The position numbers and the translations under genes were made by a program. Of a stretch of DNA of 36,452 bases, positions 7,047-16,242 are shown in pieces. Position 1 is the first letter of the stretch, and each line of letters begins with the position of its first letter. Under the pieces are notes generated by a model. The model made no database searches. It was given only the letters and a program-made list of their open reading frames with translations, and was not told the DNA's origin. Source of the stretch: a virus (lineage: Duplodnaviria > Heunggongvirae > Uroviricota > Caudoviricetes); the IMG/VR virus record IMGVR_UViG_2711768063_000002. One strand, written 5' to 3'.

Positions 7047-8237
7047 TTAATTGCTGTTAACCGAAGTGACCAGATTTGCCAGGTATTTATCGGTAATACG
7101 CTGGCGCAGGGTCAGGTTTTCAAGAGGAGGCACCGGTGTATAGTCGTAGTCGATATACAGTTTTCCGGCCTTGAGGGTTTCCGCATCGTTGGATTCTTCG
7201 CTGAACCAGCAGGTCGCATCCACGATATAGCCGTTTGTTTTCAGCTCACGGAATTTGGCATTGATGCCGTCAACGATGTCGCGAATCAGCGTTGCTGTGA
7301 TGGGCTTATCCACCGCCCACATATGCGCCTCAGCCATCGTGTCGGCCAGCACCTGCGCGGTGCGGGTGTAGTTTTCAAAGAGGAACAGCGGGTCATCAGA
7401 GCAGGTACGGTTACCCCAGAAGCGGAAACCGTCACGGCGAATCAGCGTTGTGACGCCTGACTCGTTAAGCAGGTCAGCATCGGTGCCGGACTCCTGCAAA
7501 TCCCAGAATACAGATGCGCTGATGCCGGTAACACCGTTTACCCCAACGTTGGACAGCGTTTTATGCCAGCCCTGCTCCTGGTCGATTTTAGCGCGCAGCC
7601 CCAGCGCACGGGCGGTGGCATACGCGGTGGCGGTGGTACTGGTGACCGTATCCCATGCGAGGAAATCCGGCCAGATAACCATCAGTTCACGCTGGCTGAA
7701 ATTCTGGCGGTAGGCTTTCACCTCGGAAATGGTCTTACAGCCCCATGCGCTGATATATCCGAAAGCGCGCAGCTTCTGACAGACTGATGCCAGTGCAACA
7801 GCCACCTCTTTGGTGTCCAGTCCAGGCACGCCGAGAATACGCGGTTTAACACCGGTTACTGACTCCGCCGCCAGCAGGGCTTTCAGTCCGGTGTACTGAC
7901 CGTTTTCGTCGGTGGTGCCGATGATATTGGAAACGGTCTGCGCGAGTTTCGTTTCCTCGTCGTCGCCGGTGCCGTCTTCCACACGCACGACAACGGTGAC
8001 CGGTTTTGACTGGTCGGCGATGGCCTGCAACGATGCCGCCAGCGTGCCTTTTTTACCGGCCTTTGCAATTGCGCTCTGCACATTGGTAATCAGCACAGGT
8101 TTATTGAGGGGGAAGGTTTCCGCATCCGCATCGCTGGCCGTGCAGACCATGCCGACAATGGCCGTGGATACGGTGGAAATGACGCGGGTGCCGTCGTTAA
8201 TCTCCAGCACCTGCACGCCGTGATGATAGTCACTCAT
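7047..8237 (-). CDS. FI: Contractile tail sheath protein FI (396 aa)
   Basis: 396-aa ORF MSDYHHGVQVLEINDGTRVISTVSTAIVGMV; same length and position as P2 FI; ATG verified at 8235-8237. Confidence 0.9.
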   Translation of the reverse strand: MSDYHHGVQVLEINDGTRVISTVSTAIVGMVCTASDADAETFPLNKPVLITNVQSAIAKAGKKGTLAASLQAIADQSKPVTVVVRVEDGTGDDEETKLAQTVSNIIGTTDENGQYTGLKALLAAESVTGVKPRILGVPGLDTKEVAVALASVCQKLRAFGYISAWGCKTISEVKAYRQNFSQRELMVIWPDFLAWDTVTSTTATAYATARALGLRAKIDQEQGWHKTLSNVGVNGVTGISASVFWDLQESGTDADLLNESGVTTLIRRDGFRFWGNRTCSDDPLFLFENYTRTAQVLADTMAEAHMWAVDKPITATLIRDIVDGINAKFRELKTNGYIVDATCWFSEESNDAETLKAGKLYIDYDYTPVPPLENLTLRQRITDKYLANLVTSVNSN

Positions 8238-8330
8238 CCGTTTAACTCCGTGGTTAATGGGTGCAACTATTTTCTGTTGTGCAGAGCATGAGACGCTATT
8301 TGACCTGGCTGGTCAGTGGATGAAACAACA

Positions 8331-8360
8331 GATAAAGAAAAGGCGGGCAATTCGCCCGCC
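8331..8360 (-). terminator. Terminator-like hairpin on the minus strand upstream of the FI late promoter region
   Basis: Minus-strand read GGCGGGC-GAATT-GCCCGCC followed by TTTTCTTTATC; no minus-strand gene ends here. Confidence 0.4.
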
Positions 8361-8532
8361 AGTCCTGATTTGTACTCACTCATTTTCCGACTGATAATTT
8401 ACTTAGCCCAAAAGCCATCAAATCTGACAGTCTGCTTTGAGCGAGGAGCGAAAGTTGGCAGCTGTTATTAATTTCACATATATCCTATTGAAAAATGCCA
8501 ATCAAAAGTAGGTCGATTCAATCAGCTATACA

Positions 8533-8565
8533 TTCACATTCTAAAAATTTGGTAATATGTGAAAT
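8533..8565 (+). promoter_or_regulatory. Candidate sigma70 promoter for the kinase gene with extended -10 (TGgTAATAT at 8550..8558)
   Basis: TG at 8550-8551 then TAATAT at 8553-8558; possible -35 TTCACA at 8533-8538 has a short 14-bp spacer, so the call rests on the extended -10. Lies about 45 nt upstream of the ATG in an A+T-rich intergenic region. Confidence 0.35.
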
Positions 8566-8601
8566 AATGATGCACTGCAAAAGGAACTTATTAACAAAAT
8601 T

Positions 8602-9912
8602 ATGGGGGAGAAAATGGTTGGTGGCGTGTGGAATGACAAATTGGATGCGAAGGCGGCAGGCTGGGTAGCGGATGGTAACAAGAAAAGCGGTGGCCAAGGC
8701 GTGGCGTGTCCAGTGGTTCGTTCTGACATGAGAGCATTTTTAAAAGTATTGAAAAGCCAGAAAGACCCTGAGCGACGAGCTCGTATGTATCGCGAAGCAG
8801 TCGCTCTCTATACCTATGAACATCCGGGAATTCCATCTCTTATAGAAAGTAATTGCCATCGTTATGAACAAATGAATTACAAACTTTACTTAGTTACAGA
8901 AATAGTTGAAGGCCCAACATTACGTGAGTACATAGAGGAAAATGGGGCTATGTCATTTCAAGATGCGGTTGATATGATAGATCGCCTGTTGGATATAGTC
9001 GAATACTATCATTCTCGTGATGGCATTCACAGAGATATCAAACCTGATAATATTATACTCCGGTGTAATAACCCGGCTGATGCTGTATTGGTAGATTTCG
9101 GTCTCGCATGGCAACCTCAAGATGAGAACGCTCATGCTACTGATAATGGCCAAGAGCTAGGCAATCGTTTCTTAAGGCTCAATGAACTTGCGCCAGACAG
9201 TCCTAATAAACGAGATCCTCGAAGCGATATTACCTTTGTAGTAGGGATTTTATTTTACGTATTAACAGGAAAAAGCCCGTATGTTTTAGAAGAATCTGAG
9301 ACTGGGCGTCGACCTCACCAACGCGATGGAGTATCGGAAAGTATTCATGCCGCTACTAATGGTTGGGCACTTTCAATGCTTGCATTGTTTGACCGTGGTT
9401 TTTCACCGCTATTGAATAGTAGATTTCAGACGGTACAAGAGTTGAGAAAGGAGTTGAAGAGGATGAGCGAAAATAAACCTACATTGGCGGATGGTGAGAT
9501 TCTTTTAGAAATCAAAAAAAGGTTGGAAGCTCAAGGTGCTGAGATAAATAGTGTTTATATGAGTAAAATCAGGGAAGCTGTAAGCGAAATAATTTCAGTT
9601 CGTAATAACATCATAGAAGAGATCGGAGGTCATCTGTCTGGAGTTGAAACTGGATACTATAAATCTGAGCCCCGTCATTCTTGGTTAAACATAGGATTTG
9701 ATACCCCTGGTACTTCGTATCCTCGTTTCCGACCTACATTTGACTTTCAAATTATTGCTGATGAACTCATCATTACTGTCTTTTCAGAAGATCGGCAGGG
9801 TGTTGCTAAAACTATCTGGCGCACGGATGTTTCAAACTCTGACTTTGGTGATATTTTCCGCCGTAAGATCAGAGAAATATTTGTCACTGGGTTGAGCGAA
9901 ATTTTTAGTTAA
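8602..9912 (+). CDS. Hanks-type (eukaryotic-like) Ser/Thr protein kinase with an uncharacterised C-terminal domain of about 150-170 aa (436 aa); candidate phage-defence cargo
   Basis: Catalytic loop HRDIKPDNIIL, DFG motif VDFGLA, Gly-rich loop region GNKKSGGQGVA, candidate beta3 lysine in AFLKVLK, APD motif in ELAPDSP. A+T-rich, opposite strand to the tail operons, at the P2 Z/fun position. An alternative ATG at 8614 has a better SD (GGGGAG). Confidence 0.8.
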   Translation: MGEKMVGGVWNDKLDAKAAGWVADGNKKSGGQGVACPVVRSDMRAFLKVLKSQKDPERRARMYREAVALYTYEHPGIPSLIESNCHRYEQMNYKLYLVTEIVEGPTLREYIEENGAMSFQDAVDMIDRLLDIVEYYHSRDGIHRDIKPDNIILRCNNPADAVLVDFGLAWQPQDENAHATDNGQELGNRFLRLNELAPDSPNKRDPRSDITFVVGILFYVLTGKSPYVLEESETGRRPHQRDGVSESIHAATNGWALSMLALFDRGFSPLLNSRFQTVQELRKELKRMSENKPTLADGEILLEIKKRLEAQGAEINSVYMSKIREAVSEIISVRNNIIEEIGGHLSGVETGYYKSEPRHSWLNIGFDTPGTSYPRFRPTFDFQIIADELIITVFSEDRQGVAKTIWRTDVSNSDFGDIFRRKIREIFVTGLSEIFS

Positions 9913-10097: not shown

Positions 10098-10625
10098 TTA
10101 TTGCGGCATTTCCGGCCATTCAGGATTTGCAGGATCCACACGACTGACCAGAACGCTGTAGCGTTCCCATGCTTCCAGTCGGCTACGCTCCTCATCTGTT
10201 GCCATGTTCAGTCTGACCGCGCGCTCCAGCGGCAAAATCACGGATTCAGCATCTGCAAGAAGTCTGGCTTTCCGGTTTTCTGCCTGCTGCTGCAATTCCT
10301 CTGCCGTATAAATGCGTTTAATCACTTTGCCGTCCTTAAACATCCAGTTCCCTGAAATGTTCGCCCGCCGGTTAGCAGTAATATCCGCCACTTCAACAAC
10401 ACTTAATCCATCCGGTCTGATAGCTGTCGCATCCTTTTCCACATAGCGGATGATATTATCTTTGTCGTACGCTATTTTTAGCGTGTCATCAGCAAAATAC
10501 TTTTGTTCTTCGTACCAGTTCTTACCATCTTCTGAAAAAAACCAGACAACATCAAAGTCTTTTGTCAATTGATATTGTTCAACCGTTTTTGGATTACCTG
10601 CCGTTATATTTATCAAATGCTGCAT
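10098..10625 (-). CDS. G: Tail fibre assembly protein G (175 aa)
   Basis: 175-aa ORF immediately downstream of H; same length and position as P2 gpG; ATG verified at 10623-10625. Confidence 0.85.
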
Positions 10626-10628
10626 AAA

Positions 10629-12947
10629 TTATACCTGCGCCACGTTATACCAAGTCCCGTTAATGTATTTCTGCACCGGTCTGTAATATACGCCACCAAT
10701 GTTATCGGCAGAGTTTGAGCCGGTATCCTGAACAATAATGCCGGAATATACACACCCGGACGGTGCCTGATGTGTCCATGTCATGCCATTGTTCGCAGGT
10801 TTGTATGTGGCAGCACCACCAAGCCGGATATCCCGGACATAGCGTGAATCAAAATTACTATAGTTAGATGGTGATACCTGCCCGTTAACAGCAAAAGTGA
10901 TGCTGTTATCTGTATTTCTCTGACTGTAAAAATGCCAGCCTGCATCATCACCTAATTCAGCCACCACAGGACGACTTGAGTTTCCCCACAAATTGAATGC
11001 GGCTTCCTTCGTGGATGTATTGCTGCTGCTGACCGTGAACTTTTTCCCGCTACCGGCACGTACTTTGGTACTTGAGACAATATCACCAGTAACACTCAGG
11101 CCATGCCCCATTGATACAGCACCCGTGGCATCATTTATAATCAGTGGTCTTAAATTATTATAAGTACCTAATCTGTCACCTGATTTAGTCAACATAAAAT
11201 AAGTGCTGCTGCCATCATTCCTGATAAAGAATCCATAATTGCCATAAGCAATGCGCAGACCATTAGCACTGAGTGATGTAATCTCACCTCTTGAACGGAG
11301 ACCATAAGCGGAGCTGAGTGATAATTCTTCCTGAGCATCAGTATTACCAGTCGCCCAGCGAACTACCCCGCCCTGTACTGTTTCATGCCAGATAGTGTCT
11401 CCTTCTCCACCACGAAACTTTCTGAGATATTTTTTGCCGCCTCTGGTGCCTGAACATAAGGCCGTAGACATATAGGCATTCTGGCTTCCGCCATCCTGAT
11501 TAATCGTTCCGGTCATTGAGTCGCCCTGACGATTCCAGTCACGACGCCAGCCGGGGGAGTAGCCGTCCCCATGATTAATGTAAGTGAATTGCGCGCTGGT
11601 TGTACCGCCACCACTTGATGTTGTCGGCGTGGTCACTCGGATAGTGATTGCAGATTTAGTTCCCATGACCTCGACGACACAACCAGCCAGGTGGATATCA
11701 CCACATCCGGTATCCGTAATGATTTTGTTATTTGCATATGACCAGGAGCCTTTGCACATCCAGTACGGATGATTAAATGCACCACGGGAATCCAGCCATT
11801 CAATAAACTGAGCGGTTGTCCAGTTTCCGGCTTCAGTGCTCAAAGCGCCGCTATAAGCACGACAGGCACCGATATTTTTCGTGAAGGTATCCTTTCCCGG
11901 AATATCCGCACCGTTCTGATCTTTCTGAAGACGTTTTTCAGCATTGTCATAGGCAGACTTCACTGCTTTTGGCGTTGCCGCGAGGGTTTCAGAATCACTG
12001 TTGGTGGCGCTACTGAGCTGGACAAGACCTTTTCGCGCCGTGGTGGCATCCTGTGCAGTGTATTTCCCGTTAGCAAGGTCATACGCTGTCTTAACCGCCT
12101 TTGGTGTTGCCGCAAGCGTTTCAGAATCGCTGTTGGTGACGCTACTGAGCTGGACAAGACCTTTTCGCGCTGTGGTGGCGTCCTGTGCAGTGTATTTCCC
12201 GTTAGCAAGGTCATACGCGGCCTTTACCGCTTTTGGTGTTGCGGCGAGCGTTTCAGACGTGCTGTTGGTGGCACTACTGAGCTGGACAAGACCTTTTCGC
12301 GCTGTGGTGGCATCCTGCGCAGTATATTTCCTGTTAGCAAGGTCATACGCGGCCTTTACCGCTTTCGGCGTTGCGGCCAGTGTTTCAGACGTGCTGTTGG
12401 TCGCACTGCTTAACTGAGTAAAACCTTTGGCGGTCAGCGAGGCGTCCGGGTGACGTCGTGACTGTTCGTGCTCTGCAATTTTGTCATCAACGTAATCCTG
12501 TGTCGCCATCACCGTTGTGGTGTCAATGGTCAGCTCCACCGAGGCCACACTGCTGACGATGATGACCATGCGACAGGTCTGCGAACGCCCTGAGCCTTCG
12601 GCAAGAGCTGGCTTATAACTTTCGGCCATGTTCGCCACGGCAATTAGCGTTCCCGCATCATCGTACAGGCCAAGTTCACGCATCCAGAAACCGCCCACCT
12701 CCGGCGGAATAACCAGCTCTGCGATAATATAATTACTGTTTCGTTTGTCCTGGCTGATTTTGTTCAGCGCATGTCGCCAGACTTCGTGGATAAGCCCGGT
12801 CTGTCCGGCATCCGGGACAGGCAATTTACCACCGCCATCCCCGACGGCCATCGTGGTAATGTTGACCTTCCGCCCTCCCGGTGCGGTTGCCGCTGCCAGC
12901 TTTGCTGCACCGGCAGTGGTGATAACGGTTTTGAATTTTGTGCTCAT
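10629..12947 (-). CDS. H: Tail fibre protein H (772 aa) with internal tandem repeats
   Basis: N-terminus MSTKFKTVITTAGAAKLAAATAPGGRKVNITTMAVGDGGGKLP as in P2-like gpH; four copies of an approximately 40-aa repeat (KGLVQLSSATNSTSETLAATPKAVKAAYDLANGKYTAQDATTAR). Confidence 0.9.
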   Translation of the reverse strand: MSTKFKTVITTAGAAKLAAATAPGGRKVNITTMAVGDGGGKLPVPDAGQTGLIHEVWRHALNKISQDKRNSNYIIAELVIPPEVGGFWMRELGLYDDAGTLIAVANMAESYKPALAEGSGRSQTCRMVIIVSSVASVELTIDTTTVMATQDYVDDKIAEHEQSRRHPDASLTAKGFTQLSSATNSTSETLAATPKAVKAAYDLANRKYTAQDATTARKGLVQLSSATNSTSETLAATPKAVKAAYDLANGKYTAQDATTARKGLVQLSSVTNSDSETLAATPKAVKTAYDLANGKYTAQDATTARKGLVQLSSATNSDSETLAATPKAVKSAYDNAEKRLQKDQNGADIPGKDTFTKNIGACRAYSGALSTEAGNWTTAQFIEWLDSRGAFNHPYWMCKGSWSYANNKIITDTGCGDIHLAGCVVEVMGTKSAITIRVTTPTTSSGGGTTSAQFTYINHGDGYSPGWRRDWNRQGDSMTGTINQDGGSQNAYMSTALCSGTRGGKKYLRKFRGGEGDTIWHETVQGGVVRWATGNTDAQEELSLSSAYGLRSRGEITSLSANGLRIAYGNYGFFIRNDGSSTYFMLTKSGDRLGTYNNLRPLIINDATGAVSMGHGLSVTGDIVSSTKVRAGSGKKFTVSSSNTSTKEAAFNLWGNSSRPVVAELGDDAGWHFYSQRNTDNSITFAVNGQVSPSNYSNFDSRYVRDIRLGGAATYKPANNGMTWTHQAPSGCVYSGIIVQDTGSNSADNIGGVYYRPVQKYINGTWYNVAQV
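11942..12431. repeat. Four tandem copies of an approximately 120-bp repeat inside the tail fibre gene H
   Basis: Near-identical DNA blocks (for example GCTACTGAGCTGGACAAGACCTTTTCGCGC recurs four times), encoding the repeated tail-fibre peptide. Confidence 0.8.
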
Positions 12948-15456: not shown

Positions 15457-16242
15457 ATGGTCAGCTATAATGTGACTAATGTGTGGGAGCTAATCGTTTT
15501 GTATCTTTTGGTCTTTGCAGTATTAGCATTTTTTAGCTTTGGTAAAAGTAACCTTATGAGGCTTATTGCACATTATTTCAAATTTGGATATTCAGACAAA
15601 AAATTAAAAAGACTGGACCGCGAGTGGCGCGACATTCAACTATTTAAAACACTTAACGGAATCAATGTATCAGGCATCGAAGATGTGAGAATGATACAGC
15701 AGGGGCTGATTGATGGAAAACTAAAAACATCGGATTTTTTCCTTACTCGCTTCTGGGGAGACATAACAGAACCGCTATGCATCACAAAAACAATGAGTGC
15801 AGTCCTGGCCGGAATTCTTTATATTATCTTCGCATGTTACATACACAATGAACAATCCGCTATAGTAAGGGATGCCATAGGTATACCATATAAAAACATG
15901 ATGTACTATGTTTATAGTGACAAAGTTCTTTTATCCTTCAAAAATAAAACAGTTGAATTTAATAAAACTTATAGCCTTGCCGATTGCAAGAGTCTGCAAA
16001 ACGTATTTATAAAAGACACACTTCCTGAGATCGCCTGCAATAAGCTCTTACAGCTAAACGAGGAGGACTCCGAATGGTTAAGTCAGGAGATTAAAGATAA
16101 TAACAGCCACAGAAAAACATTATTAATAATATCCCTAACCTATTTCATTTCAGGTCTGCTTATATTCCTGTCATATGCAAAATTCCTTTACGCCAATAAG
16201 AAGGTTTTAGAATACAAAGCATCAAATAAAAACCACTCATAA
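15457..16242 (+). CDS. Predicted multi-pass membrane protein of unknown function (261 aa); cargo at the S/V (P2 orf30) position
   Basis: Strong SD AAGGAG 6 nt before the ATG; three hydrophobic helices (LIVLYLLVFAVLAFFSF, MSAVLAGILYIIFACYI, LLIISLTYFISGLLIFLSY); very A+T-rich with Lys/Asn/Ile-rich codons; opposite strand to flanking tail genes. Confidence 0.75.
   Translation: MVSYNVTNVWELIVLYLLVFAVLAFFSFGKSNLMRLIAHYFKFGYSDKKLKRLDREWRDIQLFKTLNGINVSGIEDVRMIQQGLIDGKLKTSDFFLTRFWGDITEPLCITKTMSAVLAGILYIIFACYIHNEQSAIVRDAIGIPYKNMMYYVYSDKVLLSFKNKTVEFNKTYSLADCKSLQNVFIKDTLPEIACNKLLQLNEEDSEWLSQEIKDNNSHRKTLLIISLTYFISGLLIFLSYAKFLYANKKVLEYKASNKNHS

Follow-up and report, generated by a model that had tools for sequence, protein, structure and literature searches.

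A window of 36,452 nucleotides from a tailed virus (IMG/VR record IMGVR_UViG_2711768063_000002; the window denotes the whole stretch of DNA analysed) contains a P2-like prophage with a Ser/Thr kinase gene that is, for practical purposes, the published defence system PD-T4-6. Here, we describe the C-terminal part of this kinase. Residues 297-436 (nucleotides 9490-9909; 140 residues, numbered throughout from ATG 8602 of the 436-amino-acid open reading frame, ORF) are predicted to form a separate, folded alpha/beta-sandwich domain behind a kinase core that ends near residue 290. The domain appears to be the constant, family-defining element of PD-T4-6 kinases, and a sensor or oligomerisation role is plausible for it. 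A preliminary description of the window had expected novelty to lie in this region. The expectation holds for the domain, which has no family, and not for the whole protein, which had already been published. Identity with PD-T4-6 thus takes away most of the novelty at the system level, and the domain itself is what stays new. We regard it as the best unexplored lead to how PD-T4-6 detects infection.

Fold, conservation and distribution of the C-terminal domain

The N-terminal part of the protein is a protein kinase of the Hanks type. Pfam PF00069 (protein kinase domain) matched residues 42-234 with 79.4 bits against a gathering cutoff of 31.7. In an alignment of 66 full-length homologues, from which the conservation values below were also taken, the G-loop (G30-G31-Q32), K48, E65, the catalytic loop (H143-R144-D145-x-K147-x-x-N150), D165-F166-G167 and T180 of the activation loop were invariant or nearly so; K48, E65, H143-R144-D145, K147, N150 and D165-G167 were identical in 66/66. 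With every catalytic residue present, the kinase appears intact.

Solved kinases align over at most ~257 residues of the protein. Homologues of ~430 amino acids cover 93-98% of the query, and the architecture is shared by homologues from Proteobacteria and Cyanobacteria. AlphaFold2 modelled the full-length protein with a predicted local distance difference test score (pLDDT) of 87.8 and a predicted template-modelling score (pTM) of 0.72, confidence being lower in the linker 291-296 (mean pLDDT ~71 for the block 291-300). When residues 288-436 were modelled in isolation, using 40 aligned homologous fragments, the scores were pLDDT 92.2 and pTM 0.82, and the elements of the full-length model were recovered: a helical hairpin, a beta-meander and a closing helix (Table 1). 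Translation of positions 9469-9912 (+) gives exactly the sequence quoted in the preliminary description, ENKPTLADGEILLEIKK...SEIFS*, whose start had been placed at 9470, one base inside codon 290. That description took the region for a distinct non-catalytic domain without assignable motif on a single-protein defence kinase, and the AlphaFold2 fold and the solved-kinase alignments bear it out. Homologue coverage, a fold of its own and an omega of 0.25 (below) also indicate that the region is real and not the chance tail of an ORF.

We found no named family for the domain. A Pfam scan of the window fragment and 40 family members gave noise only (no match better than E 0.01, and no family hit in more than 2 of the members), and a search of PDB sequences, by phmmer and by profile, returned nothing under E 0.49. 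By these searches the domain is without a Pfam family or a solved structure, in agreement with the earlier statement that no motif could be assigned. A Foldseek search against the BFVD viral models gave no match at E <=0.001 (template-modelling score at most 0.45), and viral structural mimicry by the domain was rejected on this result.

Among PDB structures, neighbours of the modelled domain included the FP domain of PI31 (7.6), CyaY/frataxin (7.5), Mediator Med14 and actin-capping protein subunits, all with identities of 12% or less. They have in common a two-layer sandwich with one or more N-terminal helices, an antiparallel sheet and a C-terminal helix on one face. These closest folds are protein-protein or dimerisation modules, and several of the neighbours homo- or heterodimerise through the domain. 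The best compact match, the FP domain, is the dimerisation domain of Fbxo7 and mediates the Fbxo7-PI31 interaction (bioRxiv 10.1101/2021.12.22.473884). The apparent resemblance to the FP domains of Fbxo7 and PI31 (4l9c, 4ouh) is accompanied by 5-7% identity and no Pfam match, which places the window domain outside the FP sequence family; FP domains belong, moreover, to eukaryotic proteasome and ubiquitin biology, unlike the window domain. For the frataxin/CyaY fold (4hs5, 4jpd) the identity was 9%, again with no Pfam match, and the window domain differs by an extra long helix that forms the hairpin. It is not a member of the frataxin/CyaY sequence family and gives no hint of iron or Fe-S function. 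The likeness to all these neighbours would be one of fold only and is not evidence of homology.

The domain is acidic (isoelectric point 5.1; family median 5.35), and no membrane segment was found in it. Membrane or nucleic-acid binding by the domain was rejected on the absent hydrophobic segment and the acidic isoelectric point. On the same grounds, a protein partner is more probable than a nucleic acid or a lipid, the acidity speaking against nucleic acids and acidic lipids.

The domain diverges faster than the catalytic part. Mean pairwise identity among the homologues was 46% for the kinase domain and 24% for the C-terminal domain, the latter being the more divergent of the two in 98% of pairs, as expected for a specificity module. 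The C-terminal domain of the window protein shares 83% identity with that of the Enterobacter homologue, 68% with that from Achromobacter and 60% with that from Aeromonas. Compared with an Enterobacter homologue (Nei-Gojobori method; synonymous divergence, dS, about 0.4), the kinase had an omega of 0.15 and the C-terminal domain one of 0.25, which points to purifying selection on the domain that is somewhat relaxed relative to the kinase. In the same comparison with an Achromobacter gene, synonymous sites were saturated. Positive selection on the domain was considered and not upheld: omega gave no bulk signal, and close sequences were too few for a site-wise test.

Inside the domain, non-synonymous divergence (dN) from the Enterobacter homologue was lowest in the sheet (0.064) and reached 0.13-0.16 in the helices. 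Close relatives differ mainly in the long helix (313-340) and the C-terminal helix, and the helical hairpin is the most variable part among close homologues, the beta-meander the best conserved. Heptad-like hydrophobic columns run along the hairpin (301, 304, 308, 323, 326, 327, 330, 333 and 337). R407 is the sole invariant residue of the domain (100% of the 66 sequences) and also the sole invariant column in a 40-sequence alignment of the domain; it is followed by E388 (97%), the G386 column (91%), T408 (82%), G365 (82%), P413 (74%) and G351 (73%). Position 386 is A in the window protein (A386-D387-E388), the family consensus being G-D-E. The strand register brings the G386-D-E388 turn and R407-T408, at the end of beta5, together at one end of the sheet, and places Q349-T350-G351 and G365 at the opposite end. 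Conserved hydrophobics of beta3-beta5 face the core at 380, 382, 389, 391, 393 and 405; others, at I385, V390, W406 and V410, alternate with these. Because of this alternation, the model suggests that the helix-free face of the sheet may be buried as well, whether by the kinase, by another protomer or by a protein ligand. The pattern of conserved residues would thus point to an interface.

To follow the domain beyond these homologues, its profile was run by exhaustive hmmsearch against 1.84 billion cluster representatives (E <=0.001), and 263 proteins (clusters) were matched. Every full-length match has the domain at about residues 285-430, immediately after a kinase of the PD-T4-6 type, and no convincing stand-alone or non-kinase-fused copy was found among the 263. 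Short matches were rejected as stand-alone domains, as they start with the tail of the kinase C-lobe (FDRxF...RF) or resemble contig-end fragments; mid-protein matches were rejected as new fusions, being N-terminally truncated copies of a 566-residue form; and 3 long multi-stretch matches, in which only the beta-hairpin region aligned, look spurious. Forms of 566 residues (P0050, P0046) and 753 residues (P0262) have sequence added behind the domain, which is not replaced. The appended part comprises a further 130-320 residues without a Pfam match, and in their lineages these modules could take the part of variable sensor in place of the constant domain.

This distribution has a practical use. 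The PADLOC label PD-T4-6 is far too broad, because it tags a housekeeping PASTA kinase in every S. thermophilus genome of one study and a kinase in 97/100 P. aeruginosa isolates. A profile of the domain would allow true PD-T4-6 relatives to be told apart precisely from ordinary Hanks kinases, since it matches only 263 clusters and stands behind a PD-T4-6-type kinase in every full-length match. The domain boundary 296/297, R407, E388 and the sheet face also provide defined handles for mechanism work.

The kinase part itself has family-specific invariant positions beyond the canonical signatures. In the 66-homologue alignment these are G187-N188-R189-F190, directly after the activation loop, D205/D209, and P238-H239-Q240-R241, where helix G normally sits; there is in addition an N-terminal extension, residues 10-21, with a conserved W21 (the W10/W21 extension). 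The four stretches (187-190, 205-209, 238-241 and 10-21) may be substrate-docking or regulatory surfaces. One homologue (P0096) keeps the extra kinase motifs, has an additional N-terminal domain and is without the C-terminal domain.

Identity with PD-T4-6

The PADLOC model PDLC04046 (PD-T4-6) matched residues 8-435 over profile positions 3-424 of 427 (E 2e-174, 578.7 bits), and the PADLOC matches listed for the kinase comprised only PD-T4-6 models and mad6. In Vassallo et al. (2022, Nat Microbiol, PMC9519451), PD-T4-6 is an "S/T kinase" from E. coli UMB0949 (prototype RRM76169.1). Its ORF lies at 62620-63930, 1311 nt, in the supplementary tables, and was cloned alone with 179 nt of upstream and 232 nt of downstream flank. 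The single gene, selected on T4, protects E. coli K-12, and the T4-selected systems in general were also protective against T2 and T6. The HHpred table published there gives kinase families only, at residues about 4-284, and carries no annotation for the C-terminal region (PMC9519451). The same source makes the second P2 prophage hotspot, the 'fun' locus, home to three of its systems.

The window ORF has the same length as the prototype ORF, 1311 nt, and occupies the tail sheath / tail-fibre assembly slot of a P2-like prophage, where guanine-plus-cytosine (GC) content goes down to 0.39. Within the 90% cluster of the window protein, every E. coli sequence differs from it by 0-1 residue; RRM76169.1 and its contig RRWI01000019 were not among the accessions or contigs returned for the relatives of the window protein. 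By profile match, ORF length and locus type, we conclude that the window gene is, to all practical intents, the published system. Both are single-gene Ser/Thr-kinase defences of E. coli in the P2-like 'fun' slot, and, judged by ORF length and family profile, probably nothing distinguishes them. Our literature search for the mechanism of PD-T4-6 found no paper and nothing beyond the designation 'S/T kinase'.

The surroundings of homologues were also compared. An Enterobacter homologue (86% identical; L004-L006, gene 8001-9302) lies in a P2-like prophage, next to or beyond ogr at the junction of prophage and chromosome. Because this copy occupies a different slot, the gene appears to move between P2 cargo slots; the tail sheath / tail-fibre assembly slot of the Enterobacter prophages holds a 40-amino-acid ORF only, or is empty. 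The Achromobacter homologue stands between a transposase and a GmrSD-type gene, and the one from Paraburkholderia between NERD-helicase and Shedu (SduA_C) genes, where an nSTAND3 protein follows and there is an integrase close by. A metagenomic homologue comes after a type I restriction-modification operon and a ParD/PIN pair, and that of Methylosinus is a solitary insertion amid housekeeping genes. No neighbour is constant across these contexts, which fits a single-gene defence system. Cumulatively, the end-to-end PADLOC match, the prototype ORF length, the 'fun' hotspot and homologues beside defence genes support a defence role for the window gene.

Possible roles of the domain

We give about an even chance to a reading in which the domain is a protein-protein interaction module that gates the kinase, by a phage-derived cue or by self-association, with an outcome like that of Stk2. 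Stk2 of Staphylococcus epidermidis is likewise a cytoplasmic Hanks-type kinase with stand-alone anti-phage action, set beside the window protein by description only. From work by Depardieu and colleagues in 2016, it is reportedly activated by a phage protein and then phosphorylates broadly, and this serves as our working model. Hosts and phages differ between the two systems, and the C-terminal domain of the window type was found solely in the PD-T4-6 family.

We infer each step of the resulting model, from sensing through activation to target choice. In an uninfected lysogen, the domain would hold the kinase quiescent. Upon T-even infection, it would bind a phage-derived protein cue and/or self-associate, probably through the conserved face and the ends of the beta-sheet, and this engagement would lead to trans-autophosphorylation of the activation loop at T180. 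Dimerisation is known to promote trans-autophosphorylation in PknB-type kinases. Once active, the kinase would phosphorylate proteins of the host and/or the phage so that phage production stops, as in the Stk2 paradigm to which Vassallo et al. refer. The window protein differs from the PknB/PASTA kinases (M. tuberculosis PknB, 1mru) in having neither a transmembrane helix (KD19 maximum 1.47) nor PASTA repeats (Pfam); its candidate sensor region is the intracellular alpha/beta sandwich instead. The NCBIfam model PknB_PASTA (NF033483) scored 95.8 bits against a cutoff of 450, over the kinase part 47-294 only, which leaves the protein outside that family.

In a stronger and more tentative version, which we hold doubtful, the alpha/beta sandwich is an undescribed phage-sensor fold that directly binds a T-even structural or early protein and switches the kinase on. 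If so, PD-T4-6 would parallel single-chain sensor-effector systems such as CapRel while acting through phosphorylation, and true family members would be recognised correctly by the domain, not by the kinase. A domain acting as phage sensor would also explain the coupling of a eukaryotic-like kinase to bacterial immunity.

The fold neighbours, the acidity, the absent membrane segment and the fast divergence fit a protein-binding regulatory role without demonstrating it. Two observations weigh against a gating module that reads a phage cue: purifying selection acts on the domain overall, no sign of an arms race being seen, and the domain is never exchanged within the family, the longer variants (about 566 and 753 residues) appending sequence behind it. 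The absence of swapping suits a constant element, structural or regulatory, no less well than a variable sensor. Together with purifying selection, it somewhat favours a constant regulatory element over a hypervariable sensor. The alternatives of homodimerisation, docking and autoinhibition partly overlap.

The same two observations bear on an alternative that we judge unlikely, namely that the domain is a constitutive homodimerisation or scaffold module, which pairs kinase domains or stabilises the fold and senses nothing. The phage cue would then be read elsewhere, for instance in the kinase domain, in the conserved N-terminal W10/W21 extension or via the availability of substrate. A family-wide domain that is under purifying selection and is kept in place when others are appended is what such a module would look like, and the best compact structural match is a dimerisation domain; beta4 and beta5 carry conserved hydrophobics on both faces. 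However, a domain that diverges at twice the rate of the kinase is an unusual dimer interface if its role is purely structural, and the similarity to FP would be at fold level only.

Fast divergence relative to the catalytic domain is in line with a substrate-docking module, which would bind the phage or host protein to be phosphorylated and in this way govern the choice of target instead of activation. A soluble, acidic fold of the protein-interaction kind would suit this task, and the few strongly conserved polar residues (R407, E388 and T408) could make a recognition site. We consider docking less likely still, as it leaves unexplained why a constitutively expressed kinase is harmless in lysogens; it also has no known substrate, and the kinase's own invariant motifs, G187-N188-R189-F190 and P238-H239-Q240-R241, could dock instead.

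In another alternative, the domain is an intramolecular autoinhibitory module that packs on the catalytic domain and is released by phosphorylation or a cue, for which the KA1 domains of MARK and Chk1 kinases provide a model. The location at the extreme C-terminus, after a linker that is short and flexible, the pTM of 0.72 for the whole protein, which suggests a defined mutual arrangement of the two domains, and the conserved hydrophobics on the putative open sheet face are in line with this alternative. We nonetheless find it improbable; neither a KA1 fold nor a KA1 sequence of the MARK/Chk1 type, with its basic lipid-binding surface, was found in the window domain.

Finally, disorder of the tail or its being part of the kinase C-lobe, either of which the preliminary description would have taken as its refutation, is scarcely credible for a region that is modelled confidently on its own with six regular strands and three helices, lies beyond the ~257 residues over which solved kinases align, and keeps its architecture in Proteobacteria and Cyanobacteria.

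The locus and other genes of the window

The kinase gene stands alone between the tail sheath and tail-fibre assembly genes, both of which are on the opposite strand (Table 1). GC content forms a trough of 0.39-0.46 at the gene, compared with ~0.55 in the flanking phage genes, and the exact kinase DNA is present in 5/5426 complete E. coli genomes, in which the flanking sequence is common. The site is a cargo ("moron") slot of the P2-like prophage. In P2, "fun" occupies this slot, flanked by the genes for tail-fibre assembly and the tail sheath.

Table 1. Features of the kinase gene and its surroundings in the window (positions of the whole stretch)
Feature	Position	Strand	Basis or remark
Tail sheath gene (FI), P2-type, left border of cargo slot	7047..8237	-	RefSeq on identical locus; Pfam Phage_sheath_1 on identical gene
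Intrinsic-terminator-like hairpin GGCGGGCGAATTGCCCGCC, then T-run	8341..8360	-	Terminator scan and sequence; upstream of kinase gene
PD-T4-6 Ser/Thr kinase gene	8602..9912	+	ORF list; PADLOC PDLC04046 match; RefSeq 'serine/threonine protein kinase'
Hanks-type kinase catalytic domain, residues about 26-290	8677..9471	+	Catalytic motifs, G-loop to activation-loop T180
Inter-domain linker, residues 291-296	9472..9489	+	No secondary structure; columns not conserved
C-terminal helical hairpin, predicted helices 297-310 and 313-340	9490..9621	+	DSSP of AlphaFold2 models
Predicted five-stranded antiparallel beta-meander (346-356, 359-367, 379-385, 388-394, 403-409)	9637..9828	+	AlphaFold2 models
A386-D387-E388, beta3-beta4 turn	9757..9765	+	Family column frequencies
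R407-T408, strand beta5	9820..9825	+	66-sequence column frequencies
C-terminal amphipathic helix 417-435 (predicted), closes domain	9850..9906	+	AlphaFold2 models; hydrophobic columns 419, 423, 426-428, 431, 434
Tail-fibre assembly gene (G), P2-type, right border of cargo slot	10098..10625	-	RefSeq; Pfam Caudo_TAP
Tail-fibre gene	10629-12947	-	RefSeq

The true start of the kinase is probably ATG 8614, which gives 432 residues, because a Shine-Dalgarno sequence (GGGGGAG) precedes this codon and RefSeq places the start there on the identical gene of E. coli A37. The 432-residue form is used by RefSeq and most database entries, though the longest ORF begins at ATG 8602. A consensus promoter scan found none upstream of the gene; its four promoter-like matches all lie within the ORF and are no more than shuffled sequences yield.

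From the tail-fibre assembly gene to the stop codon of the kinase, a terminator scan detected no terminator-like site. Given the strong palindromic terminator on the far side of the gene, late transcription of the tail-fibre genes is expected to read antisense over the entire kinase gene and to stop there. It is a speculation of ours that this antisense transcription could silence the kinase during the lytic cycle of the prophage itself.

The prophage probably carries a second defence cargo at 25943-29149, a GC trough of 0.32-0.35 that has the portal-side genes on one side and the replication gene on the other (P2 hotspot #1). Its ORF at 25943-27298 (+) encodes a 451-residue FRG-domain protein (PADLOC candidate system PDC-S15, E 8e-98; Pfam FRG, 8.9e-23), and the ORFs 27715-28311 (-) and 28394-29149 (-) had no Pfam or PADLOC match. 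Another moron slot may be marked by a 261-residue ORF at 15457-16242 (+), on the opposite strand inside the baseplate/tail morphogenesis block and in a GC dip of 0.45; it is a 'hypothetical protein' in RefSeq and had no Pfam or PADLOC match. At the left window edge, outside the prophage, lies a host gene of the peptidase U32 family (1-1362, +).

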